Source: Candidatus Parvarchaeota archaeon (GTDB taxonomy: Archaea; Nanobdellota; Nanobdellia; JAAOXT01). From it: DNA of 64,000 bases. Shown piece by piece: positions 12,704-55,999 of the stretch. The notes beneath the pieces were generated by a model. That model saw only the letters and a program-made list of their open reading frames with translations, was not told the origin of the DNA and did not search any database. The translations under genes and the position numbers were made by a program. Every line of letters starts with the position of its first letter. The stretch's first letter is position 1. Where the stretch lies: the NCBI GenBank assembly GCA_017609605.1, contig JAFCDO010000007.1, positions 17,997 to 81,996 on the forward strand, written 5' to 3'.

Positions 12704-14173
<1,470 letters not shown>

Positions 14174-17286: not shown

Positions 17287-17362
17287 GGGTTAAACTATCT
17301 AGGAGTTAAGAGTAATAAAGGTTTTTAAAGACAAGAGATAATTTTAGGTTAATTGATATTAA

Positions 17363-18094: not shown

Positions 18095-18275
18095 AAAAAG
18101 TTATTTTGTCAATCACCATTTTTATCTACATGGAGAAATTATAGGAATATTTGAAAAATGTTTAAGTCGTGGTCTTTGCTTTTTTTTTTGGGGGGGGGTT
18201 AAATAATAATTGATTAAAATCCATTTTTTCTAAAAAAGAAAAGTCTTAAAACGAACATTTTCTGAAGTTTTTCTT

Positions 18276-19920: not shown

Positions 19921-20035
19921 TGGGCCTGTCGTGATTCGAACACGAGACCCCCGGCTCTCTTAGAGCGAGGGAACCCTTTTATGGGGATTCACTGTCATAT
20001 AAGACCGGTGCTCCACCAGGCTAAGCTACAGGCCC
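19921..20035 (-). tRNA. tRNA-Ile (UAU) with 41-nt intron at 37/38
   Basis: rc = GGGCCTGTAGCTTAGCCTGGTGGAGCACCGGTCTTATA[TGACAG...CTAAGAG]AGCCGGGGGTCTCGTGTTCGAATCACGACAGGCCCA. Canonical 3-4-3 bulge-helix-bulge (CTTA/TAAG central helix). Mature length 74 nt. Confidence 0.8.
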
Positions 20036-35410: not shown

Positions 35411-36376
35411 ATGGAGATATGGACTGAGAAGTACCGGCCGAAAAAACTTGATGAAATAATCGGGCAAAAAAACGTTGTTAAAAGACTTAAACAATTTGTT
35501 AAGAACAAGAACCTTCCCCACGTGCTTTTCGCGGGCCCAGCAGGGATTGGGAAAACCTCTTGCGCTCTCGCCATAGCCCAGCAACTTTACGGAGATGACT
35601 GGTCTCTTAATTTCTTCGAACTTAATGCGAGCGATGAGAGAGGAATAGATGTTATTCGCGGAAAAATCAAGGATTTCGCTCGAACCATGCCTTTAGGAGA
35701 AGCACCTTTCAAAATAATAATGCTCGACGAGTCAGATGCTTTGACGCGCGAAGCCCAGCAAGCCTTGAGAAGAATGATGGAAAAATACACTAGAACTTGC
35801 AGGTTCATTCTTTCGTGCAATTACTCTTCAAAAATTATTGACCCAATACAATCCAGGTGCGCTGTTTTCAGGTTCAAGCCTATTGACAAAGAAGACATAT
35901 TGATGCATTTAAGCGAAATTGCTAAGAAGGAGAAACTCAAGATATCTTCAGACGTAAAAGTTAATGAGAATCCGGTTTTCCTAGCCATCCATGACGCTTC
36001 AGAAGGAGACATGCGTAAAGCAATAAACCTTCTGCAGTCGTGCTCGGTGGTGGAGGGAAAGATAACCTCAGACACGGTTTTTGAAGTAGCTTCTTACGCT
36101 AGACCCTCTGAAATTAAGAGGGTGGTGGAGCAAGCAGTTTCAGGCAAACTCGTCGAAGCAAGAAATCTTTTGTTCGACACCATGCTAAAATATGGTTTAA
36201 GCGGGCTGGACGCGGTCAAGCAACTGCAAAAAATGGTGATGCAATTGGACATGCCCGCTCAAAAAACGGCTTTGGCTGTTCAAAAAGTGGCTGAGTGCGA
36301 GTTCCGGTTAGTGGAAGGAGCTGATCCTTACATACAATTGGAAGCCCTGCTCGCAGGTTTTATGCTATTAAAATGA
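35411..36376 (+). CDS. rfcS: Replication factor C small subunit
   Basis: Start MEIWTEKYRPKKLDEIIGQ (ATG 35411; the longer track ORF adds 16 implausible aa). GPAGIGKTS, LDESDALT, QSRCAVFRF (SRC motif). Confidence 0.95.
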   Translation: MEIWTEKYRPKKLDEIIGQKNVVKRLKQFVKNKNLPHVLFAGPAGIGKTSCALAIAQQLYGDDWSLNFFELNASDERGIDVIRGKIKDFARTMPLGEAPFKIIMLDESDALTREAQQALRRMMEKYTRTCRFILSCNYSSKIIDPIQSRCAVFRFKPIDKEDILMHLSEIAKKEKLKISSDVKVNENPVFLAIHDASEGDMRKAINLLQSCSVVEGKITSDTVFEVASYARPSEIKRVVEQAVSGKLVEARNLLFDTMLKYGLSGLDAVKQLQKMVMQLDMPAQKTALAVQKVAECEFRLVEGADPYIQLEALLAGFMLLK

Positions 36377-37584
36377 GTTCTGAACCTTGGGTTAGGAAAT
36401 ACTTTCCTAACAACTCAAAAGGAATTGTTGGAAACAAAAAAGTAGTGCAAAGACTCTTAGAATTCGTGCAAGACTACAAGAAACAGAAGAAAAAAGCGGT
36501 GCTCTTGGTTGGAGGCACGGGAGTTGGCAAAACCGCGAGTGTTTACGCCGTCGCGGCAGAGTTGAACTATGAACTCTTGGAAATCAATTCTTCTCAAGTG
36601 ATGAATGCGGACTCAGTGAAAAACGTGATTGGCAACGCGGCTAACACCATGAGTTTAACTGGCAGGGGAAAAATTATTCTAATTGATGACGTGGACGCTT
36701 TTTCAGGAAGAAAAGATAGAGGAGGAATAAGCGAAATAATTGATGTCATAAAGAAAAGCGGAAACCCGATAATATTGACTGCGCTCAACCAATGGAACCA
36801 GAAATTAAGAACTCTTAAGAATCACGCGGAAGTCCTTCAATTCAGGAAACTCATGAAATCCCAAATAAAAGTCTTGCTGAAGCTAATAGCTGACAGTGAA
36901 GAACTATGTTTAGAGCAAGGAGTTATAGAATTAGTGGCAGAAAAATCCGGGGGGGACATGAGAGCAGCCATAACTGACTTGGAAGTCCTGACAACAGGAG
37001 GAAAAGTGTTGCAACAAGACGTTGAAACCCTTGGTTACAGGGAGAAAACGCTGGGAGTGTTCGAGGTCTTGGATAAAATGTTTCATTCGCAGGATTATCA
37101 TGAGATTGTTAAAGCTGTGAGGAACTCTGACGTCAATCTTGATGAACTGTTGTTATGGGTTGCGGAAAACCTTCCTCGTCGCGTTAAAGACAGGGATTCG
37201 TTGATAAAAGCTTATGAAACCTTGGCTGAAGCAGACCTTTTTCGCGCCAGGATTAGGAAGCGTCAGCACTGGAGGTTTCTGGTTTACGTTCAAGACTTGT
37301 TAGTGCTCGCAGTCATGCTTGCTGAGAAGGACAGGGGTTGGTTTAGGACTGAGCGGCCTTCCAAGATAGCAAAGCTTTGGAAAACTAAGTCCGAGCGAAA
37401 CGTTCGCGCAAGCATTAGCGCAGCCTTTGCCGAGAACTGTCACACGAGCGCGAGGCAGGCAGAAAAAATTTACCTTCCTTTTTTAAAAACTTTAAGTCTT
37501 GTGAACTGGAAAAAAGCGAGTGAGCTCTGCGCCAGCTTAAAACTAGGTGAGAAAGAAGTTGAATGGCTGAAAAATTCTACTTGA
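36373..37584 (+). CDS. rfcL: Replication factor C large subunit
   Basis: PWVRKYFPNN, Walker A GGTGVGKTA, Walker B ILIDDVDA. ATGA overlap with rfcS. Confidence 0.85.
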   Translation: MSSEPWVRKYFPNNSKGIVGNKKVVQRLLEFVQDYKKQKKKAVLLVGGTGVGKTASVYAVAAELNYELLEINSSQVMNADSVKNVIGNAANTMSLTGRGKIILIDDVDAFSGRKDRGGISEIIDVIKKSGNPIILTALNQWNQKLRTLKNHAEVLQFRKLMKSQIKVLLKLIADSEELCLEQGVIELVAEKSGGDMRAAITDLEVLTTGGKVLQQDVETLGYREKTLGVFEVLDKMFHSQDYHEIVKAVRNSDVNLDELLLWVAENLPRRVKDRDSLIKAYETLAEADLFRARIRKRQHWRFLVYVQDLLVLAVMLAEKDRGWFRTERPSKIAKLWKTKSERNVRASISAAFAENCHTSARQAEKIYLPFLKTLSLVNWKKASELCASLKLGEKEVEWLKNST

Positions 37585-38539
37585 CAGCTTTTCTTATGGC
37601 AATGCCTTTCAAGGTTCCGATGATGCAGTCTTTGTTTGAACCGCAGCCAGCGGCGTTGCCCGAGCCTATGGAGGATTGTTTTAGACAAGCAGCCCGGAAG
37701 TTATAACTAACTGAAGAGCACTTGCTGGCGTCACCGGTGAACGAGACGTACTCGATAATGCATAAATCGGTCTCGCACGCTGAAACGTTGCCTTCAAGAG
37801 CGGCTCTACAAGCAACGGAATTATCGCATACCTCAACGTTGTCAGTCATTTTAGCGACGTGATATTTCAAGCCGTAATCATCCATGTTCCCATACCTGTA
37901 CAATTGACTTGAACTGCATAAATCTGATATCGAGCACAAATCGTACAAGTAGTGCTCGCACGACCTGCTGCCGGAATCGCATAAAGACTCGTTAATCGTG
38001 GCAAATGCTAATAAGTCATAGCACTTATCCTTATTGTCACTGTTTGATTGGTTGCAGTAATCAGCACTTCCTTCAACGAGGGCTTTACACATGTTGTAGT
38101 AACCGCCTGAAAAAGAAGCGCACTCATCATTGCTTTCTTCGCTAATCTCTTCACCTGTGAGGAAGGTTGTTTTGCAGTGCTGGGTTCCTTCAAGAATGGT
38201 TGGATAACCCATGATGTCGCTCACGCCCAGTTTTTCGTAATCAATTCCTTCGCGAATAATTCTGCAATCAACACGGTGAGTAGGGTAATTGTAAGTGACT
38301 TCGCACACAGAAGTGATTCCTTCAATTCCTGCGACAGAAACGTGATACGTTTTTTCTCCCAGAATCGTGACATTGATTCCGTTAATCATTGCTTTGGATG
38401 GTTGGCAATTCTCGAGAGCTGTGTTCATGCACGCCTTATCATTTCCGCAGTCAGTAAGTTCCACAAGTTGCTCGCTGGCGCATCCCGCGAAAATAACTGT
38501 GATGAATAATAACATGAATGGCAAGGATTTTTTAACCAT
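37577..38539 (-). CDS. Cysteine-rich secreted lipoprotein (last gene of the pilus-like operon)
   Basis: Likely start MVKKSLPFMLLFITVIFAGCASEQ (lipobox FAGC; ATG 38539). By my count, 23 Cys in ~320 aa, spaced fairly regularly. Confidence 0.6.
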   Translation of the reverse strand: MVKKSLPFMLLFITVIFAGCASEQLVELTDCGNDKACMNTALENCQPSKAMINGINVTILGEKTYHVSVAGIEGITSVCEVTYNYPTHRVDCRIIREGIDYEKLGVSDIMGYPTILEGTQHCKTTFLTGEEISEESNDECASFSGGYYNMCKALVEGSADYCNQSNSDNKDKCYDLLAFATINESLCDSGSRSCEHYLYDLCSISDLCSSSQLYRYGNMDDYGLKYHVAKMTDNVEVCDNSVACRAALEGNVSACETDLCIIEYVSFTGDASKCSSVSYNFRAACLKQSSIGSGNAAGCGSNKDCIIGTLKGIAIRKAVK

Positions 38540-38577
38540 TGTAAAGAAAATTATGTGAGAAGTTCTATAAAAAACTA

Positions 38578-41500
38578 TCACTGATATCTTTCTTCCGTGT
38601 ATTCGAAGTTATCAAAGTGATAAGTGGTTTTGGTCATGGTTTTCGAAGGTGTTGTGTACTCGCTACCTAGAAAACGCACAAAATCTTCCACACGACTCCA
38701 CGAACCAGTTTTTTCGGCGTACAAGTAAAAAACGTTCTCCCTAACCGAAGGGTATAATTTGAGCTTTAAGTAAGATTCCGTGGCGTCATCCTTGAAACTT
38801 GCTGTAGAGTTATGCGCAATCAATAAATCGCACGGCACTATCACCGCGAAAACATAAGAGTTATCCCTCCTGCCAGCAAAAGTCCAGCCATTACTGCATT
38901 TGAAAGAAGATTTTGAAACCTTAGCCACGGTATCGTTAAGCACTCCTTCAACCCTGCCAAAAACCTTCCAAAAATGATCCGCTGAACCGTTAAGCCTGAC
39001 GCGAGGACTGAACTCCACGATTCTTGAAGCGTTCACAGGAACCTGGGCATCAATTTTTATGAAAGGGGAATAAGAACTGATGCTGAAAGAATAATTTAGT
39101 TGAGGAGTGGTTCCCGAGCCAGCGTTAACCGTTGCGAACAACTTGCCAAAACGAGTGAGTACGGGGCTTGAAAGAGCAGAGCTATAACTCGCGGACACGT
39201 CGCTCATGTCAGTTATCCTAGTTTCAATGTCAAAGGTTCCAGAATCATAAAACCAGTTAGCTCCTTCTGACTGAAAATCCTTATTGGAGAAATCCCAAGA
39301 CCATAAAGAGTTTGAAACATTCGTTCCGCTAACAATCAAGTTAGACGATTGGTCATCCGAACAATCCTTATCAGAATAATAAGCGAAAAAACTGGTTTTA
39401 CCATCCTCAAAATCGTTCAGGAAAGTTATGTTCAAGCGAGGATTGGAAGGGTTAAACCAATAATTCTTAGACTCGCTCACACTCCAACCATCACTGAGAA
39501 GAACTTCCAGTTCAGCCCCTGCCGAGAGTGAAGTCGGGTCAAGCCAATAAAACCTTCCAAAAGGTTCTTTAAAACCCGTGAAGTTAAGCTCACCCCAGGA
39601 TTGACTAATTGATTGGGAGTTGAGAGTGTTACCTTCATAATCCAGTATTCGAATAGTGGTGGCCGAGCCAGCGGATATTAATCGCAAAGACATGTTGATG
39701 AACGAATCGTTCTCGCCTGCGCGGAACAATAATTTAGGAGCAGGTCCTTTGACCGCAAAGTTTTTCTCGTTCAAAACCAGTTTTGGCAGGCTCGAAGTAA
39801 TGTTAAACCATTCGGATCCAGCAACGCTCACGTTATACTCTCCTGAAACGCCTTTCGAATCAATCGTGTAAGCGGTCCCGTTCCCCTCAAGGTTTGAAGG
39901 AGTGGTCGTGGACCCGTCAGGATAAGATACATTAAAACTTATTACTTCATTATTTGATTGATTGGTCACTGTCACGGTAAAATTGGTTCCGTTAACGTTG
40001 TAAACAGTGAAGTTAGGTCTTAGCGAGCCGTTAAAATAAGTGGTCAGGACGCTGGACCCAGTGTGGTAAAAGCTTGGCTGAGTCAACTTTGTTTTAAAGT
40101 ACTCGTCGACCACGCGAATGCAAGTGGGCCTGGTTTGAGCCTCAAAACCCAGTTCTACACTAATCGTCGCGTTATCAACTGGTTCTGAATCAACTGTAAA
40201 ACCAATCCTCCCAATAAACATGGTTTCACTGACTTGATTGAGTTTTGAGGTCGAGTTAGTCATGGTGGCTGAAGAACTGAAATCTTTAGTGGGAAAACTT
40301 ATTTTAGCACTGTTATCAGCGTTGTAATAAATTAGAAACGTGTTGTTAGCGTTTGCTGAAAGGTTAACGAGTAATGAAATGTTTCCCAACGAAGCGCTCT
40401 CATCCTCCCAAGATAATTGCCAAGGAATCATGACATGACTCTGGTCGAACACCGCAAAATTAATGGTTCCTGAAGGGACTTGAAAGTCTTTTGAACTGGA
40501 AGTGGAGAACGAAAAGTTGTAAACCCCGTTTTCCACTGCGGAACCAGTGTTAGTGAGATTTATGCTAGTCCTGTTCCACTGTTGTTTGCTCCAGTCATCT
40601 TTGTCAACCTGTTTTTCTATTTTTTCGTTAAAAGTGGAATAACTAGTTTCCAAGGAATAACCTTCATTAATCCCGGAAACTTTCAGGTAATCCAGTGCCG
40701 AAGAAATTTTGGAGTTAACGCTTTCCTCATCATTGACGTGTATGTTGAACTGGTGGCCTAACAAGAAATTGCTGGTTTTTGAGCCGTTAAGGGATTCTCC
40801 AAGCATCAAGTAAACAATGGCGTTCACCTGGTCAGAAGAAGAGCCTCGACCAGTGATGTTAGTGAAGTCATTGACGTCCGAGGCCTCCAGTAATCCCTGA
40901 GAGGGTTGAGAGGAGTCGAAACCCCAGTCAGAAATGTTGGTTAAAAAAACTTTCGCCTCGGTCGGAGTCGTCTTGGCGAACAAACCCCAAAGCCTTCCCG
41001 TTCCAGACGCTGAGCTGGTTGAAGCTCCACTGCAAAAATCGCTTATTGTCCCCCCATCAACGTCATCGTAATCCCAGTTGTGCTCGCAAGCATGGTTGAA
41101 AAGTATTGAGAGGTCGTCTAAACCGGAAGTCGAAGTAGAATTTTTTATAGTGATGTTTGCCATGACGTAATCGTTGAAGAAGAAGTATTCAATCTTTGAA
41201 AACACTGGAGTGCTAGCAGGATTGTTGAAATTATAGGCATAGATTTTTGCGTAACCGAAAACGGGCCCGCTGGAGTAATCGCTAAGAGTGGTTGTCCCGG
41301 ATTCCTGCTCGTTCCAAGCGTTGAAAAAACCTTGGCTTCCCACCCACTCATGACTGTTTTGTTTGGATTTGAAACTCGAAATCACTCCTCCTTGATTGAG
41401 ATCCACTTCCGCTAAGTAAGAAGGAGTGTTGATTATTAGTTTGGTGCCGTCTTTTTCAACGCTTGTCGTGTTAACAGTTTCTTCTGATGGTATGACGTAG

Positions 41501-41961
41501 TCTTGAGAGGATAAGGAATTGTAGTAGACGTTGATGGTTTGGTTCGCGAGCCCGGTGTAGTTCAGCGTGGCGTAAAGAACTCCTTGTTTCGCGGTCAGGT
41601 TCTCCCAATGCACTTGGAAAACTTTTTGCTTCGGGGCAAAAACCATTAATGAGTTCGTGTCAGTATCGTTTCTCAAGTCAAAACCAATTTTTATTAATCG
41701 GTTGGCTGACTCGTTCAGGACTTCTTGAACCTCTATTTTCAAACGATAACTTTTTTTGATTTCGTTCCAGTTAAAGGTTTCCGAAACTTTATTCAAGAAA
41801 CCTTTTAGGTTGTATGCTTTATTCAAGCTTATCCGCTGAAACTCCAGTGTCGAGACCTTCAACCCTGGAGGCAGGACTAAATAACTAATTATCGCGGACA
41901 TAGTTATTATCACGATTATTCCTGTTATCACGAAGAACTGGCCTTTCACCACAAGTACCAC
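38578..41961 (-). CDS. Giant (1127 aa) pilin-like surface protein with class III signal-like N-terminus
   Basis: N-terminus MVLVVKG|QFFVITGIIVIITMSAIISYLVL ([KR]G followed by ~22 hydrophobic aa). The rest is S/T/N-rich and dense in N-x-S/T sequons (NLTA, NYTG, NQTI, NTTS, NSTS, NITG, NGSK ...). Confidence 0.7.
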   Translation of the reverse strand: MVLVVKGQFFVITGIIVIITMSAIISYLVLPPGLKVSTLEFQRISLNKAYNLKGFLNKVSETFNWNEIKKSYRLKIEVQEVLNESANRLIKIGFDLRNDTDTNSLMVFAPKQKVFQVHWENLTAKQGVLYATLNYTGLANQTINVYYNSLSSQDYVIPSEETVNTTSVEKDGTKLIINTPSYLAEVDLNQGGVISSFKSKQNSHEWVGSQGFFNAWNEQESGTTTLSDYSSGPVFGYAKIYAYNFNNPASTPVFSKIEYFFFNDYVMANITIKNSTSTSGLDDLSILFNHACEHNWDYDDVDGGTISDFCSGASTSSASGTGRLWGLFAKTTPTEAKVFLTNISDWGFDSSQPSQGLLEASDVNDFTNITGRGSSSDQVNAIVYLMLGESLNGSKTSNFLLGHQFNIHVNDEESVNSKISSALDYLKVSGINEGYSLETSYSTFNEKIEKQVDKDDWSKQQWNRTSINLTNTGSAVENGVYNFSFSTSSSKDFQVPSGTINFAVFDQSHVMIPWQLSWEDESASLGNISLLVNLSANANNTFLIYYNADNSAKISFPTKDFSSSATMTNSTSKLNQVSETMFIGRIGFTVDSEPVDNATISVELGFEAQTRPTCIRVVDEYFKTKLTQPSFYHTGSSVLTTYFNGSLRPNFTVYNVNGTNFTVTVTNQSNNEVISFNVSYPDGSTTTPSNLEGNGTAYTIDSKGVSGEYNVSVAGSEWFNITSSLPKLVLNEKNFAVKGPAPKLLFRAGENDSFINMSLRLISAGSATTIRILDYEGNTLNSQSISQSWGELNFTGFKEPFGRFYWLDPTSLSAGAELEVLLSDGWSVSESKNYWFNPSNPRLNITFLNDFEDGKTSFFAYYSDKDCSDDQSSNLIVSGTNVSNSLWSWDFSNKDFQSEGANWFYDSGTFDIETRITDMSDVSASYSSALSSPVLTRFGKLFATVNAGSGTTPQLNYSFSISSYSPFIKIDAQVPVNASRIVEFSPRVRLNGSADHFWKVFGRVEGVLNDTVAKVSKSSFKCSNGWTFAGRRDNSYVFAVIVPCDLLIAHNSTASFKDDATESYLKLKLYPSVRENVFYLYAEKTGSWSRVEDFVRFLGSEYTTPSKTMTKTTYHFDNFEYTEERYQ

Positions 41962-43046
41962 ATCCTAAGAAGGACTTTAGAATAATCTTTTTCAAGATTT
42001 ACCAGCCTGCTGATAGAGTGAACATTTGATTTAGGAGAATCCTTTAGTATTGGAGGGGTTCCATCCCTATTATCCTTTTCAAAATTGATTGTTATGTTGG
42101 TGTTGTCATAACTTGTGTTGAGCGTCGAATTATAATCATCAGTGTCAGAAGTCCCTATTGAGTACGAGAGGTAAAACTCTTTGTTGCTGTGATTCATTAA
42201 TGGAATGAAGAATTGCACGTCCGCTCTCGTGGAGTTCTGAGGTTCCCCAACAGATGTTGCAACGCTGGAGTTAACGAGTAAGGAGTTCACGTAAAGTCCT
42301 GCGTTGTTAGAATTGTAAGAAGTGGATCCCCCAGCGTAATAAAAGTAAGCCAAGGTTTTAGTGTTAGCTGGAAGCAAAGATAAGCTGACGTTGACTGTGA
42401 CGTTCATATCGCTCCCGAAAACAGTTTGATTGGTCACGTTAAGCCTGTATAATGTATCATCAACCTGGAAAACGAACGCTGACTTGTTAACTGTTTCACC
42501 GTTAGTTTTTAAAGATAAATTTGTTATTCCAATGACGCCGTTCTCGACTCGCGTGTTGTTAGTTATCAAGTATATGGGAACGCTGTACCAGTTCCAGTCA
42601 ACATTCCTGTCAAAAGAATACCCGTCAGAGAATACGTGCACAGAGTTTTTATCCACGTACGAAGGAAAATTGAAGGTTAAGGCAACCGCCTGATCAAAAT
42701 GATTAATTGTTTTGTTAGTCCCGGCATCCCACGTCCCGCCAGTGGAGTTCAAAGTAATTTTTGAGAAATATTCTGCCCGCACTTGATACCCGAACCGTTC
42801 AGGCATTATGTAGTATAACTTGTTTTCAAGTGAGCGCAAGTCATATTTTTCTAAATCCTGGCTGAGAAGACCTGTTTCATCCAAAGAGTTTAATAGCACT
42901 CTGCCAAGCCTTGAAGGGTTTCTTTGAAAACTTTCGGTAGGCGTGTAAACTCTTTGAGTGAAGTAAACGTAAGAACCCATAAAAAAAAGGATGGTTAGGA
43001 TGGCCTCCATTGATTTCATAAAACCTTTATTATTCATATTATCCAC
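41946..43046 (-). CDS. Pilin-like protein (366 aa) with class III signal-like N-terminus
   Basis: MDNMNNKG|FMKSMEAILTILFFMGSYVYF; sequon-rich extracellular part. Overlaps both neighbours (13 and 16 nt). Confidence 0.6.
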   Translation of the reverse strand: MDNMNNKGFMKSMEAILTILFFMGSYVYFTQRVYTPTESFQRNPSRLGRVLLNSLDETGLLSQDLEKYDLRSLENKLYYIMPERFGYQVRAEYFSKITLNSTGGTWDAGTNKTINHFDQAVALTFNFPSYVDKNSVHVFSDGYSFDRNVDWNWYSVPIYLITNNTRVENGVIGITNLSLKTNGETVNKSAFVFQVDDTLYRLNVTNQTVFGSDMNVTVNVSLSLLPANTKTLAYFYYAGGSTSYNSNNAGLYVNSLLVNSSVATSVGEPQNSTRADVQFFIPLMNHSNKEFYLSYSIGTSDTDDYNSTLNTSYDNTNITINFEKDNRDGTPPILKDSPKSNVHSISRLVNLEKDYSKVLLRMWYLW

Positions 43047-43828
43047 GCGTTAACCTTAACTTTTGATAAGTATTTATTGTTGTTTTCAACAACGTTCGTG
43101 AAAAACTCTTGGTAAACATAATCCTGATAACCCGTGCCAGTTGTTCCGCAGGAATCGTTCATTTTTAGGTCGCCAACATAAAATTTTGATAAATCCATTC
43201 CTTGATTTGTATTAGTGTTCGTGAGAACGACCAAATATTTTTGGGAATGCGAGGTAACAAAAATGATGGTGTCCTCATCCCCCGCGGATAAGGAAAGGTT
43301 GAAGGAAAAAACTTGGTTGTTAAAAAAATCGGTTGAGTTGGAAATGTCATCTTCGGATTCAATTTCTGAATTGGTGGATGACACGTAAACGTTTTTAGGG
43401 AAAACCAAGTCAAACGAGGCGTTGCCGCTTCCAGTTGTTCTGCCCGCGCTAATGTTAAAATCGTAGCCGTTAATTATGAACCTGACCTGACCTTCACCGA
43501 AATCGCTTCCAAGAGTGTAGTTAGCGTTTTGAGGTAGGGTGAAGCCTAACAAGTTGTATTCTAAGGAAAGGTTTGAGACAAAATCAAATTCTTTAGTGCA
43601 TAGGGATTGGAATTCTTCCGAAGTCATGGAATACTTTTCAAGAGAGGATACGATACTGGTTATTTTTTTTTCGCGGAGCTCGAATTCGCTGGAGTCAGAG
43701 AAGGGGGTGACAAGTCTTAGCAAAAAGTTGATTAGGAAAATTATGAAAAACAGGAATATCAGGTAAGCGACTATGGCGTCAACGTCAACCTGCCCCCGTG
43801 ACCGCGAGCTGTATTTTTCGTGATTCAT
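43034..43828 (-). CDS. Pilin-like protein (264 aa) with class III signal-like N-terminus
   Basis: MNHEKYSSRSRG|QVDVDAIVAYLIFLFFIIFLINFLL; overlaps the upstream gene by 44 nt. Confidence 0.55.
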   Translation of the reverse strand: MNHEKYSSRSRGQVDVDAIVAYLIFLFFIIFLINFLLRLVTPFSDSSEFELREKKITSIVSSLEKYSMTSEEFQSLCTKEFDFVSNLSLEYNLLGFTLPQNANYTLGSDFGEGQVRFIINGYDFNISAGRTTGSGNASFDLVFPKNVYVSSTNSEIESEDDISNSTDFFNNQVFSFNLSLSAGDEDTIIFVTSHSQKYLVVLTNTNTNQGMDLSKFYVGDLKMNDSCGTTGTGYQDYVYQEFFTNVVENNNKYLSKVKVNAWII

Positions 43829-44906
43829 CCTTTTCTCCTTCCATTTTTGCGATTACAAGTACTTCATAAACCCCTACTTCTTGCGGAGCTATCAACGAGT
43901 AAGAGAACTCTCCTTGTTCGTCAGTTTTTATTACTTCGGTCAGGTTCTCTAAGATTATGAATATTTGAGTGTTTGAAACAGGGCTTCCTTCAAGCACTAT
44001 GCTCCCAGTCAGCTCCGTTTTTTCTCCAGAGGAGAGCACGTTATCACTTAGCTCAGCGTTGAAGTCAATGATTTTCGGGTAGATGAGCACTGAGAAAGCC
44101 ACTAACGCTATAACCAGCATTATGAAGGAATGCTTTACTCCCGCGACCACGCTTCCATCCTTGGCCTCTCCTGCCACTAATCCATTCATGAAAGATTGTA
44201 TGGTCATTGTTAGGAAAAAAAGTATTTTAAAATAACCTACAGAAGGCGCGCTCCCTCCGCTGATGAATAACGCTCCTCCAGCCCCCCCTCCAACGGATAG
44301 TAAGGGGATGAGGATTCTGTAAAGGGCTACGATTATGCCGATGAACAAGAGATTGATGATGTAAATAATGGTTATTTGCTCTTTGAGAATAGATTGTCTT
44401 TCATTGGCTATTTTTTTGAGCAGACGAGTAGCTTCAGATACTGAGCCCATAGCGTCTGAAATAGCGCCTCCAGCGTAGTAGGCTTGAATGACTATTCCTA
44501 TGGCTCTTCGTATGAAAATGCTTTTTTTATTTCTCTTCGCGAAGTTCTTGATAACGTTTGGCAGAGGGATTCCCCACGACAATTGGTTCGCCATTTTTTT
44601 CACGTCTTCATTTAAAGCCCCGTAATCAGTTTTTGTAGCGTTGAGAATGGCTATTGGTAGAGTCATGCCCGCTTCATGAGCATCCGAAAGGTTTCTGAGA
44701 AATTTGGGCAGGTTATCCTCTTTTTCGGACATTTTTTGTTGATAAGTGAATTTTAGTATTGACCATGGAACCAAGAATATCGATATTCCTATAACTATTC
44801 CGTAACCCACTACGAGGATGTCTCCTTGAGATATTATCACTGCGCCTAGGCATACGAATATGGCGATTGTTCCGAAAACAAGGGTTATTATGTCTTCTTG
44901 GTCCAT
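43785..44906 (-). CDS. FlaJ/TadC-like platform protein, second T2SSF half, with C-terminal extracytoplasmic beta-sandwich-like domain
   Basis: T2SSF pattern LPKFLRNLSDAHEAGMTLPIAILNA...LSWGIPLPNVIKNFAKR plus TM bundles. C-terminal TGSIVLEGSPVSNTQIFI...TDEQGEFSYSLIAPQEVGVYEVLVIA resembles a CarboxypepD_reg/Ig-like fold. Confidence 0.75.
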   Translation of the reverse strand: MDQEDIITLVFGTIAIFVCLGAVIISQGDILVVGYGIVIGISIFLVPWSILKFTYQQKMSEKEDNLPKFLRNLSDAHEAGMTLPIAILNATKTDYGALNEDVKKMANQLSWGIPLPNVIKNFAKRNKKSIFIRRAIGIVIQAYYAGGAISDAMGSVSEATRLLKKIANERQSILKEQITIIYIINLLFIGIIVALYRILIPLLSVGGGAGGALFISGGSAPSVGYFKILFFLTMTIQSFMNGLVAGEAKDGSVVAGVKHSFIMLVIALVAFSVLIYPKIIDFNAELSDNVLSSGEKTELTGSIVLEGSPVSNTQIFIILENLTEVIKTDEQGEFSYSLIAPQEVGVYEVLVIAKMEGEKDESRKIQLAVTGAG

Positions 44907-44912
44907 TTTTTT

Positions 44913-45788
44913 TTATGTCTCCGTTGGTGAAATCATTTTTAGCATCAATATGAACGCTGCGCTCAGGAAGGGCAGTCCAATAGTCACGAGTATTATTTGC
45001 ACTGTTTGGAGTTGTTGCGCGTACCCTCCGAGCAAGCTCATAATAGTTGTTAGCACGAGGATGAATACTGAACCTACTATGACAGCGGTTATGTACATTT
45101 CCATGAATATGCTTAGCGTCTTCACGTATTCTTGGAGTTTTCTCCTGTAATCTATGACGAAGTCGTCGCCTTTTTGGATTAGGAATCTTTTCAGGTCGGC
45201 TCCAGTGGACATTGTTGTTTTCATACCCCACAAAAGTTCTTTTAACCCTTCGCTCGGCGATGATTCAGCGGCTCTTGCCAGCGCTTCCGAAATGTCCATT
45301 CCGTAGCGGTCAATAGCGTACCAAATTTTTTGGAAAATCCTGGCGATTTCTCCGAACTCTTCGAAGTCGCCTATTATCTTGAAAATCTTGTAAGTTGGCA
45401 GTCCTGTTCCCGCGAGCGTGGCCATGTAGATGGCTGCGAAGTGGATTCCGTTATCAATTTTCTTTTTTTTCGAAGCAGATACTTGTGAAGGGTAAAAATA
45501 GAACAGGCTGAAAATTAGTATGGTTAGAAAGCTTCCAACGAAGAATGAGAACAGCGCGCTGACCAAAACGTCCCCTGTTAGAATTGAGAAAACGATTGTT
45601 AAGGTTATGAAGGATATAATGAAACCTAATAATGAGAAGAAAACGGCGAGTGAGAAGTACTCTTCAACGGTCAGGTGTATTTCTGCTTTTTGCAGGTCGC
45701 TGGCAATGTCTTTTATCAAATGCCTATACTTTTTGACGTGTCTGCCGAACCACCTGTAGGATTGGAATATTAGTTGTCTGCCTTTCAT
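44913..45788 (-). CDS. FlaJ/TadB-like platform protein, first T2SSF half
   Basis: GEIARIFQKIWYAIDRYGMDISEALARAAESSPSEGLKELLWGMKTTMSTGADLKRFL is the T2SSF signature. Same reading frame as 43785-44906, separated only by TAA + 2 codons. Confidence 0.75.
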   Translation of the reverse strand: MKGRQLIFQSYRWFGRHVKKYRHLIKDIASDLQKAEIHLTVEEYFSLAVFFSLLGFIISFITLTIVFSILTGDVLVSALFSFFVGSFLTILIFSLFYFYPSQVSASKKKKIDNGIHFAAIYMATLAGTGLPTYKIFKIIGDFEEFGEIARIFQKIWYAIDRYGMDISEALARAAESSPSEGLKELLWGMKTTMSTGADLKRFLIQKGDDFVIDYRRKLQEYVKTLSIFMEMYITAVIVGSVFILVLTTIMSLLGGYAQQLQTVQIILVTIGLPFLSAAFILMLKMISPTET

Positions 45789-45834
45789 GTATTGATTAAT
45801 ATCTTTAGAATTATATTCTTTTATAATTACTCTT

Positions 45835-47709
45835 TCAAGTTCGCGCTGACTGTTTTGAAGGATATTTTTTCATCAGTTGCGTTAAGTATTTTGGGTTGGA
45901 GTAGAACATGGCTATGATGTTCGCAACTTCTTTGTAACCTTTTATTTCTTGTAATTGCATCCATTTAAGGACTTCTATTCGAAAAGCGAGGTCGGAGCGT
46001 AAAACTTCTATTGAGTAACCCATTTTTTCCTTTATTTTATCAAGAATGGTTGACTTGTAGGATTTGAACGTGTCTGTTGAAGGATTCCATTTGAAAGAAG
46101 TGTTGGTGGTTAGTTGTTGGGTGGAAAACTCGTATTGTAGGATTTCAACAACGGATTTAACCTTTCTCACGTACACTCCTTCTCTTCGGGTTAGGGCTAA
46201 GAACACGACAACGTCCAGCGCTTCTAGCATTACTTTCGGAAGGTTTATTGGTTTATTAGTGAGGCGGCCGATAACGGATTGTATGCTGTCAGCGTGAAGG
46301 GTTCCCATTGAAGGGTGCCCCGTGCTCATTCCTTGGAACATGACGTAAGCTTCTTCTCCACGAACCTCTCCCACTATGATGTAGTCAGGTCTTTGACGCA
46401 GTGACGATTTTAGCAAGTCGAACATTGTCACTTCACCGTAGCTTTTGGTTCCGAAGCCAGCTCTTGCGACTTGAGGTATCCAGTTCGGGTGGGGTAGCAT
46501 GAGTTCTGGCGTGTCTTCTATGCTGACTATTTTCAGCGCTGGCTTTATGAATAGGGATAAAGAGTTCAGAAAAGACGTTTTTCCTGTGGCTGTGGCTCCG
46601 GCGATGAGCACGGATAACTTGTTTTCTATGACTAGCCACAAATAAGCAAGGATTTCCGCGTTAACCGTTTTGAAATCCATTTGGTTGATGGGAGTTAATG
46701 GTTCTTTGGTGAATTTACGGATAGTGAAGTTTGAGCCTTTCCTCGCTATGTCCGTGCCGTAGGTTGCTTGCACACGACTGCCGTCCGCCAGGGATCCGTC
46801 GAGAAGTGGTGACGCGATGGATAAGGACCTGCCAGTTTTTTGAGCCAGTCTTAGCACGAAACCGTCTAACTTCTCTTTTTCTTCAAATATGACGTTGGTT
46901 TGGAGTTCCCCGTATAAAGGGTTGCGATGATATATGAAAATGGGGATGCTTGACCCGTCGCAACTGATGTCTTCTATATTCTTGTCATGCATCATGGCTT
47001 CGATTTTGCCAAGCCCGATAAAATCTCTGTAAATATAGTATTCGAACTTTAGTTTTTGCGCTTCAGTGATTTTAAGTCCTTCTTCCTTGATTATTTCTTC
47101 AAAAGTGTCTATGAGGTATTGGATCGCTTTTTCGGATCGGACTTCCGCGAAGTTTATGTTAAGTTTTTCTTCAATTGTTTGTTTTAAATCCTCCAGTTTA
47201 GCTTTTTCTTTAGGAGTTATTGGGGGTTCTGAAATGAAGTATGAAAGAGCTTGTAATTCTTCATTCCATTTGATTATGCCGTAAGCGAACGTGGAGGTCT
47301 TGCCACCCAAGTTGAGGGTTATCAGCGGGAAAACGTCGTAGACTTTTCTTTTTTTGGCAAGAACTTCTTCGGGGACGATGCGAGCTTTTCCTGGGAGGTT
47401 GCTGAATAATTCGAGTTTTTGATGAACTTTTTTTTTCTCTTCTTCTTCAATTTCTTTTTCTTCTTTCTTGACAGGTTCTTTCTCTTCTTTTTTTGGTGGT
47501 TCTTCTTTGATTTCAACTTTTTCTTCTGTTTTGATTTCTTCATCGATTTTGGTTGTTTCTTCAACTAATTCTTCTTTCAGAGGTTTTGTTTCTGGCGCTG
47601 GAAGAACTTTTTCATTTTCAGGAAGCTTCTCTTTTTCAATCTTTTTTTTGGAGGCTTCTCTAGCTTTTCTTAATTTTTTACCTATCTTGGATAATTTTAG
47701 TCCAGCCAT
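45835..47709 (-). CDS. FlaI/PilB/VirB11-family secretion ATPase with K/E-rich N-terminal extension
   Basis: Walker A GATATGKTSFLNSL, Walker B/Asp box PDYIIVGEVRGEEA, His box GHPSMGTLHA. The first ~95 aa are low-complexity KE-rich. Confidence 0.9.
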   Translation of the reverse strand: MAGLKLSKIGKKLRKAREASKKKIEKEKLPENEKVLPAPETKPLKEELVEETTKIDEEIKTEEKVEIKEEPPKKEEKEPVKKEEKEIEEEEKKKVHQKLELFSNLPGKARIVPEEVLAKKRKVYDVFPLITLNLGGKTSTFAYGIIKWNEELQALSYFISEPPITPKEKAKLEDLKQTIEEKLNINFAEVRSEKAIQYLIDTFEEIIKEEGLKITEAQKLKFEYYIYRDFIGLGKIEAMMHDKNIEDISCDGSSIPIFIYHRNPLYGELQTNVIFEEKEKLDGFVLRLAQKTGRSLSIASPLLDGSLADGSRVQATYGTDIARKGSNFTIRKFTKEPLTPINQMDFKTVNAEILAYLWLVIENKLSVLIAGATATGKTSFLNSLSLFIKPALKIVSIEDTPELMLPHPNWIPQVARAGFGTKSYGEVTMFDLLKSSLRQRPDYIIVGEVRGEEAYVMFQGMSTGHPSMGTLHADSIQSVIGRLTNKPINLPKVMLEALDVVVFLALTRREGVYVRKVKSVVEILQYEFSTQQLTTNTSFKWNPSTDTFKSYKSTILDKIKEKMGYSIEVLRSDLAFRIEVLKWMQLQEIKGYKEVANIIAMFYSNPKYLTQLMKKYPSKQSART

Positions 47710-47735
47710 TTTTTTTGTTGGGGGGAGTATTGTTT

Positions 47736-48494
47736 TTAGTCTATGCTTAGTTTTAAGATGATTTCTGTTGAGCCCGCGTCACTTGTTTTTTTGGTATCTA
47801 TACTATTGAATCTTATGTTTAAAGTGTGGTCTCCCTGACCCGTCTCGCAGTTTGAATCGCATTGTAGCACGTAGCTTATTTCTTTGCCAAAACTGTCTTT
47901 TAGCGCGCGGTATTTCAGTTTTATCAGGACTTTTTGGAAATCTCCTGAGGGAATGCTTTTCCCTATAACCACTCCTGCTGGGTCCCTACCAACCACTCCC
48001 GTGTTTTCAATGTCTTTTCCCAGTATGACCGCGCTTGTCCCATCCGTTTGGATGGAGCCGATAATGTATTCTACGCTTGCTTTGGTTATGGTGTTGAATT
48101 GGGTTGCGCAATCCGAGTCCACGATCATGTCCGTGCTGTTCATACATAGTGAAGTGTAGGTTCCTTGAGCAGTGCTGTTGTAAACGCTTATCTGGTATTC
48201 CACTCCTTCGAACACTGCTGTCCCGTTTTTAGGGTTTTGAAACCCTGTTCGTGTCGGGCAGGTCGTGCAATCGCTTGAAGTGTTGACGCTGGTCAAGTTC
48301 TTTTTGGTGGGCATTTGCGTGCCTGATAATGGCACCCAATAGTTCACAGCTATTACGGGAACTCTTGTGCTGGTATCCCATTGGACCGTTCCGTTGTAGA
48401 TTCGCAGGTTTTCTCCTGCGTTTAGTCCTATTTTTATGGTCATAGAGCTTTTGGAGTTGCCAACGTATCGGATAGCGCTGTCAATTTCAGTCAT
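47736..48494 (-). CDS. Hypothetical Cys-containing protein of the pilus-like operon (252 aa)
   Basis: ORF between the pilin and the ATPase. No signal peptide from the annotated ATG. Confidence 0.5.
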   Translation of the reverse strand: MTEIDSAIRYVGNSKSSMTIKIGLNAGENLRIYNGTVQWDTSTRVPVIAVNYWVPLSGTQMPTKKNLTSVNTSSDCTTCPTRTGFQNPKNGTAVFEGVEYQISVYNSTAQGTYTSLCMNSTDMIVDSDCATQFNTITKASVEYIIGSIQTDGTSAVILGKDIENTGVVGRDPAGVVIGKSIPSGDFQKVLIKLKYRALKDSFGKEISYVLQCDSNCETGQGDHTLNIRFNSIDTKKTSDAGSTEIILKLSID

Positions 48495-48626
48495 TTTTGC
48501 GATTACGTTGTCTATGTGTGCTTTGTCAGTGCTTTTTTCGATTAGGGGTTTGCCCCAAATGATTGTTGCAGCGACTATAGTTTTCGCATTATTGATAATT
48601 TAGAAGTTTTAGGATTATTAATGTTT

Positions 48627-49139
48627 TTAGGATGCGTGCCCTTCTTGTACTGTGCAGGTTGCTGTTCCACTTGAGCCTACAGGACTGGTAAATTTTAGTG
48701 AGTAATCAGTGGTGGAATCTATCCCGTTTTTCATTTCGTCGAAACCTACGTTTAGTGTTGTGAAACCGTTTGAGTCAACTGATGCAAGACTGGTGGTATT
48801 GGTTTCCAAGTCGTTTCCTTCCGAGTTCCTTAGTATGGCGTACCAGGTTCCAGCCTTGATTTTTTCGACTCCGTTGTTCTGTATTATCACGGTTATGTTT
48901 CCTTGCGTTGCGGATCCCGCTGTTTGGTTTCTGCAGATGAGGCTTATAACGCTTAGGCTTGACCCACTGCTTCCTAGGGTTTGACTGACTTGCGCGCTGG
49001 TAGAAGTTTCTATTTGGGTGCTGAGACTGCTCATCCAGAAGTAAGCTCCTGCCGCGGCGGCTACTGTCATCATGAGCAATAAGACTGTGGCGATTACGGG
49101 GGTTATACCTTTTTTGTTGATTCTAATCACTGGTCTCAT
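48627..49139 (-). CDS. Archaeal type IV pilin (class III signal peptide)
   Basis: MRPVIRINKKG|ITPVIATVLLLMMTVAAAAGAYFW is the classic archaeal pilin N-terminal domain (KG|xxPVIAxxLL). S/T/N-rich globular part. Confidence 0.85.
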   Translation of the reverse strand: MRPVIRINKKGITPVIATVLLLMMTVAAAAGAYFWMSSLSTQIETSTSAQVSQTLGSSGSSLSVISLICRNQTAGSATQGNITVIIQNNGVEKIKAGTWYAILRNSEGNDLETNTTSLASVDSNGFTTLNVGFDEMKNGIDSTTDYSLKFTSPVGSSGTATCTVQEGHAS

Positions 49140-49294
49140 TTGTCATCCTATATTAGGAGGTTTTGGGTATTTAGTTGTTTCTGGAGCGGGAAGAGGTTGC
49201 TTTAAGGAAGGTTCTATCGAAACAGGTTCTTCTAATGGAGTGGATTGCTCAAATGATGAGCTGGCTTGTTCGTTGAGGGTTTTGAGCTGGGATA

Positions 49295-49621
49295 TTATTT
49301 CATCCAATTTTTTCGGAAATTCTTCGCCACTTTTTTCTTCTTCATCTTCTTCTTCGCTTTGAGTAGGTCGACCATTTCAGTTATTTGCTCGACCATATCA
49401 CTGATTTTTATCATTAATTCAACCATTTTTGATTGTAGGGAAATGTTCATTCCTGCTAGTTTGCTTATTTGCACGCTTAATTCGCTTATCCCGATGCGAA
49501 GGTCCATCATGTTTATGTCTGGGACTGTTTCTTCATTTTCTTCTTTTTCCATTTTAGCAAGTTCTTCTTGTATGGATTTTAATGGAGACAAGCTTAAGTC
49601 AGAGTATTTTTTTTTAGTCAT
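49295..49621 (-). CDS. Coiled-coil protein, first gene of the pilus-like operon; probably continues to 49143 after a frame change
   Basis: Heptad-like MDLRIGISELSVQISKLAGMNISLQSKMVELMIKISDMVEQITEMVDLL. See the finding on the open -1 frame. Confidence 0.5.
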   Translation of the reverse strand: MTKKKYSDLSLSPLKSIQEELAKMEKEENEETVPDINMMDLRIGISELSVQISKLAGMNISLQSKMVELMIKISDMVEQITEMVDLLKAKKKMKKKKVAKNFRKNWMK

Positions 49622-53880: not shown

Positions 53881-54570
53881 ATGACAGTTAGGATTTCAAC
53901 AGGCATTCCTGGAATGGATAAACTCATTGAAGGAGGTTTCAATGTTGGCGACATAATTCTTGTTTCGGGAGGCACGGGTACAGGTAAAACAATTTTTGGA
54001 CTTCAGTTCCTTTATAACAATAAGGATTTTAATGGTCTTTACATATCTTTTGAGGAGAGCAAGGAAGATTTGTTCAGGGATGGGAAACAGTTCGGCTGGG
54101 ATTTAGAGGAGATGGAGAAGACAGGTAAACTGAAAGTTGTTTATTATCCTCCTTTCGAGTTTGATAAACTCTTAGATCAATTAGAGGACATAATTGTTAA
54201 GACAAAAGCTAAACGAATCGTGATTGATTCAGCAAGCATTTTCGGTCTTTACGTTAAGGACTTGTACGAGCTTAGAAGGAAAATATACAAGCTGTCCAAA
54301 GTGATAAAAAAAACGGGTTGTACTTGTCTTGTCATCAGCGAGATTGTTGGCGAATCCTCTTCTGAATCCCTTGCTGGTAAGTACTCGCGTTTCGGCGTCG
54401 AGGAGTTCGTCGCTGATGGAGTGATAATCTTTCATTACACGGGTTTGGGGGGGGACTTTGACAGGACGGTTCAAGTACTCAAAATGAGGAGAACAAATCA
54501 GAAGAGAGGGTTGTTTCCCATGAAAATTGGTAAGAAAGGTATTGTAGTGAAGCCGAACGTTTCTGGATAA
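53881..54570 (+). CDS. KaiC/RadA-like single-domain RecA-superfamily ATPase
   Basis: ISTGIPGMDKLIEGGF, Walker A SGGTGTGKT, Walker B RIVIDSAS. Confidence 0.8.
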   Translation: MTVRISTGIPGMDKLIEGGFNVGDIILVSGGTGTGKTIFGLQFLYNNKDFNGLYISFEESKEDLFRDGKQFGWDLEEMEKTGKLKVVYYPPFEFDKLLDQLEDIIVKTKAKRIVIDSASIFGLYVKDLYELRRKIYKLSKVIKKTGCTCLVISEIVGESSSESLAGKYSRFGVEEFVADGVIIFHYTGLGGDFDRTVQVLKMRRTNQKRGLFPMKIGKKGIVVKPNVSG

Positions 54571-55414: not shown

Positions 55415-55999
55415 ATGAAATTGAAAAAATCTTTAAAGAAATTTTGGGATTTCTTATGGCATGGGGAGAGCGTTTGGTCTTACCTCGCGTTCATAATATT
55501 TAGTTTCATAACCTTGTCAATTCTTTACCAATTATTTTTGTTCTTTCTCGGTTTTTTCGGGGTTGAAGACTTGTTCGTCGTAATCACTGGTAGCATGCTT
55601 CATTCAGGGGACATTGAGAGTCCTTATTATGAATGGATGGAACTGCACGGTTTTAATCGTTCTCAGCTTGACTCCTGGATTTTTTCTGACGGCTTGAACT
55701 TGGGTGATTTGATGGTAATAATGAAAGTCAACCCAGAGGAATTGGAGGTTGGAGACGTGATTGTTTATAACCCGGAGGGAGCGGAATACAAAATTATTCA
55801 CAGAGTAATATTTATAAACGAGAGTGATGGTAACTTGTCTTTCACCACAAAAGGAGACGCTAATTTCGGCGTGCTAAGCTTTGAGCGAGAACTTTCTTGT
55901 AACGAAGTTGTTGGGCGCGCGGAGCACCGCGTTCCTTTTGTAGGGATCCCAAAAATGATTGTTACGCGTGTTTGGATGATTATTAAAGGCGGTGTTTGA
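55415..55999 (+). CDS. Signal peptidase I (archaeal Sec11/S26B type)
   Basis: N-terminal TM, catalytic-Ser box ITGSML, GDVIVY, His box IIHRVI, TKGDAN. Confidence 0.75.
   Translation: MKLKKSLKKFWDFLWHGESVWSYLAFIIFSFITLSILYQLFLFFLGFFGVEDLFVVITGSMLHSGDIESPYYEWMELHGFNRSQLDSWIFSDGLNLGDLMVIMKVNPEELEVGDVIVYNPEGAEYKIIHRVIFINESDGNLSFTTKGDANFGVLSFERELSCNEVVGRAEHRVPFVGIPKMIVTRVWMIIKGGV

Follow-up and report, generated by a model that had tools for sequence, protein, structure and literature searches.

Euryarchaeal type IV pilus (T4P) loci of clade 2 often contain two tadC genes and a PilA-family major pilin, accompanied in one variant by a further pilin set; their minor pilin arCOG02911 is an all-beta protein of variable length (250-550 amino acids, aa), and nanoarchaeal ATPases have been placed in the same clade (Makarova, Koonin & Albers, 2016, PMC4858521). 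T4P loci of DPANN archaea include unannotated signal-peptide proteins, which were predicted to be divergent "dark-matter" pilins (Makarova, Wolf & Koonin, 2019, PMC6393860, Fig. 2A), and systems with two platform proteins have been described in DPANN, as have large adhesin-like proteins in loci of system 2 (Sivabalasarma & Albers, 2026, bioRxiv 10.64898/2026.04.22.720090). Here, we analyzed ten co-directional minus-strand genes (g1 to g10; Table 1) in a stretch of 64,000 nucleotides (nt) from Candidatus Parvarchaeota archaeon (contig JAFCDO010000007.1), referred to as the window. A preliminary description of the window had proposed a type IV pilus-like attachment apparatus; the underlying observation was confirmed, and the interpretation is supported in part. 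The reading that we favor, with moderate confidence, is a nine-gene T4P operon (g1 to g9) of a Nanoarchaeota/Woesearchaeota-type DPANN archaeon, in which minor pilins would prime and cap the filament and the giant subunit would act as a tip adhesin.

The locus resembles the clade-2 T4P, typified by the Haloferax volcanii PilB3/PilB4 loci, in several respects. Its ATPase is nearest to GspE of Archaeoglobus fulgidus (afGspE) and has a weak match to PilB3_C, two tadC-like genes are present, and a PilA-family major pilin is accompanied by several more pilin-like genes including one for a variable-length all-beta protein; a coiled-coil accessory protein, as encoded by g1, also occurs in some clade-2 variants. 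In contrast to these loci, the window proteins match the haloarchaeal families DUF7287 and DUF7289 only below threshold, two pilin-like proteins are three to five times as long as their counterparts (366 versus 127 aa and 1127 versus about 217 aa), and the platform has an extra C-terminal beta-domain. The DPANN loci with "dark-matter" pilins likewise combine an ATPase, TadC and unannotated signal-peptide proteins predicted as pilins (PMC6393860). Two platform genes are shared with system 1 and, in DPANN, subsystem 4A, whereas an N-terminal extension of the ATPase and large adhesin-like proteins are shared with system 2 (bioRxiv 10.64898/2026.04.22.720090). Unlike the published systems, the window mixes a split platform, an extended ATPase and large adhesin-like proteins, and its adhesin-like protein itself bears a class-III-type N-terminus. 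The Epd pilus of Methanococcus, which belongs to system 1, also has two platform genes; however, its dedicated peptidase (EpdA, arCOG2300, bioRxiv 10.64898/2026.04.22.720090; EppA in PMC3875500) is not encoded in the window, and its major pilin is short and devoid of a globular domain (bioRxiv 10.64898/2026.04.22.720090), whereas g2 comprises 170 aa with a C-terminal domain.

Since multi-pilin, two-tadC and DPANN loci have already been catalogued, the operon belongs to a known kind of archaeal pilus. It is a lineage-specific variant and not a new class of machine. The composition, which had appeared unfamiliar in the preliminary description, maps onto loci in the three publications cited above. 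Particular to this lineage are two minor-pilin-like proteins that DUF2341-like modules have made three to five times larger, a giant and rare protein family that itself bears a class-III-type N-terminus, and the extra C-terminal domain of the platform.

Core machinery and conserved gene order

The core of the operon consists of a PilA-type pilin (g2), an afGspE/PilB-like ATPase (g4) and a split TadC platform (g5 and g6). The pilin matched TIGR02537 (3.6e-10, 39.2 bits, cut-off 20), and its matches to UpsA, Pilin_N and Arch_flagellin were all sub-threshold (19.2 bits for Arch_flagellin, cut-off 29.5). Its class III motif KKG/ITPVIATVLLL (the slash marks the presumed cleavage site) is kept in the related loci L002 and L062, and the gene itself is conserved in L001, L002 and L062. 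The ATPase contains a T2SSE domain (1.7e-31, 109.6 bits, cut-off 24.9). Its nearest solved structure is afGspE (2OAP, 403 bits), compared with 263-266 bits for FlaI of Sulfolobus acidocaldarius, and its score against the archaellum FlaI (ArlI) model was 408 bits, below the 550-bit cut-off. Residues 1-140 form a K/E-rich low-complexity extension, in which strains differ by in-frame indels of 6 nt (47481) and 3 nt (47448). Both g5 and g6 encode a T2SSF domain (8.3e-14, 52.1 bits and 6.1e-13, 49.3 bits, respectively; cut-off 25.2). Because g5 aligns to ArlJ positions 5-249 of 555 and g6 to positions 193-451 of 465, i.e., to the N- and C-terminal halves, the platform is split into two half-size genes, as had been noticed before. 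A C-terminal extension of about 95 aa in g6 (residues ~280-373), with a weak match to CarboxypepD_reg/DUF6795 at 300-362, is probably a lineage-specific extracellular beta-domain on the platform; g6 homologs have 369-373 aa in L001-L003, L062 and L063, whereas those of Aenigmatarchaeota have about 273 aa and lack the extension. Of the four constituents by which a T4P is recognized, a VirB11/PilB/GspE ATPase, a TadC/PilC/FlaJ platform and a filament subunit with a class III signal are encoded here, while the fourth, a prepilin peptidase, was not found in the window.

An archaellum or an archaellum-derived motility apparatus is extremely improbable; the preliminary description had likewise favored an adhesive pilus. 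FlaI is the best NCBIfam model for g4, g2 weakly resembles Arch_flagellin over nearly the full profile, and a KaiC-like ATPase is encoded 4 kb upstream of the operon. However, the scores of the ATPase, the pilin and the putative ArlH are all below the respective cut-offs, and the platform is split, so that membership in the archaellum fails; g4 is also nearer to afGspE than to FlaI. Pfam and NCBIfam profile searches of the window proteins revealed no ArlF, ArlG, ArlH, ArlC/D/E or ArlX. The KaiC-like protein has a single domain (PF06745, 1.4e-59) and was rejected as ArlH (32.6 bits, cut-off 215); its gene is also found at the equivalent position in L001 and L062. KaiC-family ATPases have been listed as possible T4P regulators (PMC4858521).

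For the synteny analysis, the ten window proteins were compared with all open reading frames (ORFs) of 61 loci using phmmer. The g4 product is 97% identical to its copy in a hydrothermal-vent Nanoarchaeota metagenome-assembled genome (MAG; L001, JAAOXT010000015). Remoter copies are found in Nanoarchaeia and Woesearchaeota MAGs (L002, 58%; L003, 53%), and the next ones, with about 45% identity, in Aenigmatarchaeota and others. The operon g1 to g9 is conserved across six related DPANN contigs and lies between thermosome and replication factor C (RFC) genes where the contigs include the flanks; the conservation across DPANN that was to be checked according to the preliminary description does not extend to g10. 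All nine genes are syntenic in L001, L002 and L062 (Logan), the latter with the order Nop56, fibrillarin, thermosome, coiled-coil gene, pilin, g3 (300 aa), ATPase, TadC, TadC, g7, g8 and g9. L003 begins inside the g3 homolog and carries the rest of the operon, and L063 (JGI) and the contig JGI 3300042731 start at TadC and include the giant gene, with convergent genes for RFC-L and RFC-S behind it. Two tadC-like genes and a PilA-family pilin are kept in those loci whose ATPases are closest (L001-L003, L059, L062, L063) and also in Aenigmatarchaeota loci (L004, L016, L023, L037). The ratio dN/dS relative to L001, which is 97.5% identical, was between 0 and 0.31 across all operon genes (0.10 for g9), indicating that the genes are real and under purifying selection.

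Pilin-like proteins and the giant family

In nearly all relatives examined, g3, g7, g8 and g9 start with a short basic N-terminus, [KR][GA] and about 20 hydrophobic residues. Such starts, originally pointed out for the 264-, 366- and 1127-aa proteins (g7, g8 and g9), are thus kept across relatives, and the lineage possesses four pilin-like genes in addition to the pilin, one of them broken in the window, instead of the three counted initially. Conservation in these otherwise fast-evolving families peaks in the [KR][GA] region: [KR] at -2, [GA] at -1 and, in g3, g7 and g9, Q at +1 are the top-conserved residues. Q13 and D15 of g7, Q8-F9-F10 of g9 as well as E14 and W363 of g8 are invariant, and D17 of g7 is nearly invariant in a wider alignment (A2). 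When all ORFs of the window were crudely scanned for [KR][GAS] directly before a hydrophobic stretch, g2, g7 and g9 were picked and, outside the operon, only two antisense ORFs and one membrane protein. Because few such N-termini occur elsewhere in the window, their clustering in the operon is not attributed to chance.

The top-conserved residues at -2, -1 and +1 are difficult to reconcile with large proteins that are ordinary uncleaved N-terminal signal anchors, co-transcribed with a simple pilus of g2 only. The gene set and order, kept beside the ATPase/TadC module across phyla, and the recurrent matches of the g7 and g3 families to DUF7287 and DUF7289 also argue against such anchors. We consider them very unlikely, although some Aenigmatarchaeota g7-like proteins start with MAFSHVDF, without [KR]G, a prepilin peptidase was not found in the window, and a confident pilin fold was not obtained.

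The family searches suggested for all ten proteins recovered T2SSE, T2SSF and the archaeal pilin above the cut-offs, while no Pfam or NCBIfam family was matched by g1, g8, g9 and g10. Below the cut-offs, g7 reached 25.8 bits against DUF7287 (cut-off 27), the only recurring family among g7-family members (5 out of 10), and P0023, which is 60% identical to g7, carries a precomputed match to PF23958 that is marked as weak. Similarly, DUF7289 was the only recurring Pfam family for g3 (four of the six members tested, E 1.5e-4 to 0.022, below the 27-bit cut-off).

Partners of the pilin-like proteins in the T4P loci of Aenigmatarchaeota were identified by iterative hidden Markov model (HMM) searches and by hhalign comparisons with other loci. 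The partner of g3 is a family of about 390 aa (hhalign 73%, at most 5.5% to other families) with a KGISPV... N-terminus, a Laminin_G_3 domain (3.9e-18) and a weak DUF7289 match. A 127-aa family corresponds to g8 (hhalign 80%, E 1.3e-5), a 217-aa "MKGQFFLISG" family to the N-terminus of g9 (hhalign 79%), and a 232/271-aa family to g7, the latter by HMM iteration (hhalign 9%). The order of these genes in Aenigmatarchaeota, 232-127-217, is that of g7-g8-g9. In the loci L016, L023, L037 and L005, the ATPase is 45% identical to g4 and is accompanied by two TadC, PilA-type pilins and, in this order, the 232/271-aa DUF7287-like, the 127-aa, the 217-aa "KGQFF" and the ~390-aa DUF7289-like protein. The pilin-like proteins of these loci, in contrast to those of the window lineage, are small, and it is the g3 counterpart that carries the adhesin-type Laminin_G_3 domain; the window lineage has g3 upstream of the ATPase gene and the bulk shifted to g8 and g9, and it lacks a DUF7266-like fifth gene. 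According to an alignment of g8 (A4), its N-terminal ~95 aa and a C-terminal strand with the invariant Trp correspond to the 127-aa core, with a sequon-rich insertion of about 230 residues in between. These comparisons indicate that g3, g7 and g8 are homologous to pilin-like families of smaller size, and the 264-, 366- and 1127-aa proteins are, as judged from sequence, enlarged versions of a minor-pilin-like set (DUF7287-like, 127-aa and "KGQFF" families).

The family of g9 is rare. Only 14 relatives were recovered when 1.84 billion representatives were searched exhaustively with HMMER, a word-indexed homolog search retrieved only g9 itself, and a profile search of the PDB sequences gave no meaningful match. 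Most relatives comprise 900-2487 aa (the shortest noted has 544 aa, L002), all 11 examined start with [KR][GAS]QFF followed by a hydrophobic stretch, and the gene is always the last of the operon, after TadC and two pilin-like genes. Residues 64-158 resemble a DUF2341-like module that is also part of the head of an Aenigmatarchaeota g7-like protein (hhalign 94%), and the relative P0012 carries DUF2341 together with Laminin_G_3. There is no acidic residue near +5 of g9; the bacterial minor pilin GspK is not known to have one either. The composition of g7 to g9 is of the extracellular type with 3-4 N-glycosylation sequons per 100 aa, in line with the glycoprotein-like character ascribed to these proteins earlier. 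In detail, 15 sequons were counted in g8 (4.1 per 100 aa) and 38 in g9 (3.4 per 100 aa), about twice the composition-based expectation, while cytoplasmic proteins have 0-0.9 per 100 aa; the sequon-rich g9 is probably glycosylated.

Structures were predicted with AlphaFold2 (AF2). The g9 model, based on 11 aligned sequences, shows helices at 3-29 and 36-62 and an otherwise all-beta protein (mean predicted local distance difference test, pLDDT, 53; predicted template modeling score 0.40). In the g7 model (pLDDT 41), only the helix 11-43 is confident (70-89); further helices and a beta-rich C-terminal half follow. Foldseek matches of g9 in the PDB (N-domains of pentameric channels, GH38, beta-galactosidase beta-sandwiches) were set aside because of TM-scores of 0.19 or less. 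The N-terminal helix followed by beta strands that was to be looked for is present in both models, at poor confidence, and would be compatible with the "lollipop" shape of pilins.

A large, all-beta and sequon-rich protein such as g9 is also reminiscent of archaeal surface-layer proteins. The ATPase/TadC module could insert g8 and g9, perhaps along with g3 and g7, either directly into the cell envelope or into a short pseudopilus, with g9 as an envelope or sheath protein, which would resemble the Sulfolobus bindosome (Bas) or the S-layer-like proteins of archaeal T4P loci. Such S-layer-like proteins are frequent in PilA-based loci (PMC4858521), proteins with class III signals have been proposed to functionalize type IV filament machineries (bioRxiv 10.64898/2026.04.22.720090), and BasE is the second-best NCBIfam match of the ATPase. 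However, the scores for BasE (206 versus 1000 bits) and BasF (23.7 versus 1300 bits) are far below the cut-offs, no solute-binding domains were found in g3 and g7 to g9, and the operon encodes a bona fide PilA-type pilin. In addition, g9 lacks a C-terminal anchor, and g8 retains the small pilin-like core that holds the inserted module. Surface display of this type is, in our view, unlikely.

Bacterial modular or tip minor pilins (Streptococcus sanguinis PilB/PilC, GspK, ComZ, CofB; PMC8179133) combine a small pilin module, which starts with a class-III N-terminus, with a bulky extra module that is either appended or, as would apply to g8, inserted into the pilin beta-sheet; tip location and adhesion, as in these pilins, would also be predicted for the window proteins. 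The candidate modular-pilin features seen are the pilin-like core with the ~230-aa insertion in g8 and, in g9, the N-terminal motif, the helices and the DUF2341-like modules only. Unlike the bacterial proteins, with which they share no sequence homology, the window proteins are accompanied by archaeal machinery, and g9 with 1127 aa (up to 2157 aa in its family) exceeds the maximum of 860 aa in the survey of PMC8179133.

Operon layout, deletions and neighboring genes

The ten ORFs, the N-termini quoted for them, the 23 Cys residues of g10 and the overlaps of 44, 13, 16 and 4 nt had been described exactly. The overlaps derive from the longest-ORF coordinates; for the 366-aa and 334-aa genes, internal starts are likelier, and two overlaps would then be smaller.

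Table 1. Genes of the pilus operon and other features of the window
Feature	Assignment	Coordinates	Strand	Length	Remark
g1	Coiled-coil-like cytoplasmic accessory protein	49140..49621; ORF 49295-49621	-	108 aa	Homologs at same position in L001, L002, L062
g2	PilA-type pilin, presumed major subunit	48627..49139	-	170 aa	TIGR02537
g3	Fourth pilin-like gene, disrupted	47736..48589; remaining ORF 47736-48494	-	252 aa	DUF7289-like N-terminus in relatives
g4	PilB/GspE-family assembly ATPase	45835..47709	-	624 aa	T2SSE
g5	N-terminal half of TadC/FlaJ-type platform	44913..45788	-	291 aa	One T2SSF domain
g6	C-terminal half of platform and probable C-terminal beta-domain	43785..44906	-	373 aa	One T2SSF domain
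g7	DUF7287-like pilin-like protein	43034..43828	-	264 aa	RG/QVDVD, then hydrophobic helix
g8	Pilin-like protein, 127-aa core with insertion	41946..43046	-	366 aa	Likely start MNNKG/FMKSME
g9	Giant class-III-signal-type protein, candidate tip adhesin	38578..41961	-	1127 aa	KG/QFFVITG...
g10	Predicted lipoprotein with 23 Cys	37577..38581; likely start 38539 (MVKKSLPFMLLFITVIFAGC)	-	334 aa	Strain-specific passenger
PMT_2	Glycosyltransferase	695-2209	-		8 transmembrane segments
23S	rRNA gene	2453-5517	-		
16S	rRNA gene	12704-14173	-		
tRNA	Rfam match	15440-15569	-	130 nt	Missed by ARAGORN
tRNA	Rfam match	19921-20035	-	115 nt	Missed by ARAGORN
RFC-L	RFC large subunit	36373-37584	+		
KaiC-like	Single-domain ATPase	53881-54570	+		
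SPase I	Archaeal signal peptidase I	55415-55999	+		TIGR02228
Membrane protein	Rejected as prepilin peptidase	59833-60480		215 aa	

Two genes of the operon are disrupted relative to their homologs. The coiled-coil gene g1 is present as reported, but its 108-aa form is a frameshifted copy of a gene encoding 161-162 aa in relatives, in which a 7-bp deletion at 49358 leads to a stop at 49295. The supposed 252-aa unknown (g3) is a pilin-like gene that has lost its start and a hydrophobic, class-III-like N-terminus, because 49 bp are deleted between 48581 and 48580; reading from the former start codon (ATG, 48589) now gives MRKL and then a stop. The intact N-terminus is found in L001 (MRKAQATIVEIGLITGIIIAIVAATIIWG / MRKAQATIVEIGLITGIIIAIVAATIIWGKPL), L002 (MNKAQSNILAVVLMSG / MNKAQSNILAVVLMSGIAIVIVSAVLVWGKPL) and the 300-aa homolog of L062 (MRKGQSTIIEVGL / MRKGQSTIIEVGLITG). 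A rescue by programmed frameshifting or an alternative start was rejected, as the only upstream in-frame stretch (TIVAATIIWG) has no start codon and is too short for a membrane helix. No microhomology was seen at the deletion ends when the sequences were compared with relatives by eye. Compared with L001, the remaining g3 shows no amino acid change in 252 codons at a dS of 0.108, so that the deletion must be very recent, polymorphic or an assembly artifact; the frame-breaking deletions of both g1 and g3 are either very recent or artifacts of the assembly. Within the ~20 kb shared with L001 (34918-56000), frame-breaking intragenic indels occur only in the pilus operon (g1, 7 bp; g3, 49 bp; g10, 925 bp), while all others are intergenic or in-frame.

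The third of these indels concerns the region 37619-38543, which is missing from L001 with both ends of g10 left. The g10 product matched only itself in a search of 5.8 billion clusters and nothing in any of the 61 loci (phmmer). A convergent gene or RFC lies immediately next to the giant gene in L003, L063 and the P0003 contig, and g10 is absent from four relatives in which the giant gene abuts RFC. As an orphan that relatives lack and that a strain with 97.5% identity has lost by deletion, g10 is no conserved component, and the preliminary assignment of this Cys-rich lipoprotein to the apparatus was not upheld. In L002, a different ORF at 17184-18467 (+), which contains Cys residues and a membrane anchor (MRRKTMNSDIIKTIIIIGLGV...RCGDMCYGD...), comes after the 544-aa g9 homolog; no similarity between this ORF and either g10 or the C-terminal half of g9 was detectable. 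The operon end appears to be a variable slot. The stop codons of g10 and the convergent gene of the RFC large subunit overlap by 8 nt.

Further genes of the window, which is archaeal, include separate 16S and 23S rRNA genes. They are unlinked, separated by about 7 kb in which protein-coding ORFs and a tRNA-Ala gene are found; no 5S gene was reported. The two long Rfam tRNA matches are probably intron-containing tRNA genes. The signal peptidase I (64 bits, above cut-off) and the PMT_2-type glycosyltransferase are candidates for the processing and glycosylation of secreted proteins.

Proposed mechanism and implications

In the mechanism that we propose, a prepilin peptidase encoded elsewhere would cleave the class III signal peptide of g2 after G/A, and the hexameric g4 ATPase would polymerize this PilA-type pilin together with the split platform g5/g6. 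The proteins g3 (DUF7289-like), g7 (DUF7287-like), g8 and g9 would represent the minor-pilin set of the lineage, the same set that accompanies the Aenigmatarchaeota ATPase/TadC module. Judging from the minor and modular pilins of bacteria (PMC8179133), these four subunits may prime or nucleate the filament and cap it, ending up at the tip. Since g8 and especially g9 seem to have been enlarged through the insertion or addition of DUF2341-like beta-sandwich modules rich in sequons, the pilus tip is proposed to display a large adhesin. A cytoplasmic helical accessory function is suggested for g1, whereas g10 would be an unrelated strain-specific lipoprotein gene. Signal peptide cleavage, incorporation into the filament and adhesion are deduced here from the genes and their conservation, as is the role in host contact.

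Several points weigh against this mechanism. Within the window, no prepilin peptidase was detected, in agreement with the preliminary description: none of the ORFs with several transmembrane segments contains GxGD, and there is no Peptidase_A24 match. A 215-aa membrane protein was considered as a divergent prepilin peptidase and rejected, because it has no GxGD motif and no family match. Two nanoarchaeal genomes are without a recognizable prepilin peptidase (PMC4858521). The link between g9 and the 217-aa family spans the N-terminal 21 columns only, DUF7288 was matched by only 1 of 11 g8-family members, and all Pfam DUF728x matches are below the curated cut-offs. With low-confidence models of g7 and g9 and TM-scores not above 0.19, a pilin fold is not demonstrated. 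Filaments, tip location and host binding are deduced from genes as well, and the disruption of g1 and g3 may impair the machine in this genome.

Binding of the adhesin to a host cell is a speculative idea in line with the biology of DPANN archaea (PMC6142677). A further suggestion, tentative and improbable on balance, is that the g9 family comprises DPANN-specific, tip-displayed modular pilin adhesins of 544 to 2157 aa with DUF2341/LamG-type modules, which would set host choice within a narrow Nanoarchaeota/Woesearchaeota lineage; the operon-confined indels in g1, g3 and g10 would then reflect on/off or specificity switching and not assembly noise.

DPANN archaea depend on physical contact with their hosts, and the molecules mediating this contact are largely unknown. 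The operon does not reveal a new type of machine. It provides a concrete, lineage-wide candidate set for host contact, consisting of a PilA-type pilus, four minor-pilin-like proteins and, above all, a rare giant family with class-III-type signals, and it points to an enlargement of archaeal minor pilins by beta-sandwich insertion, parallel to that of the bacterial modular pilins.

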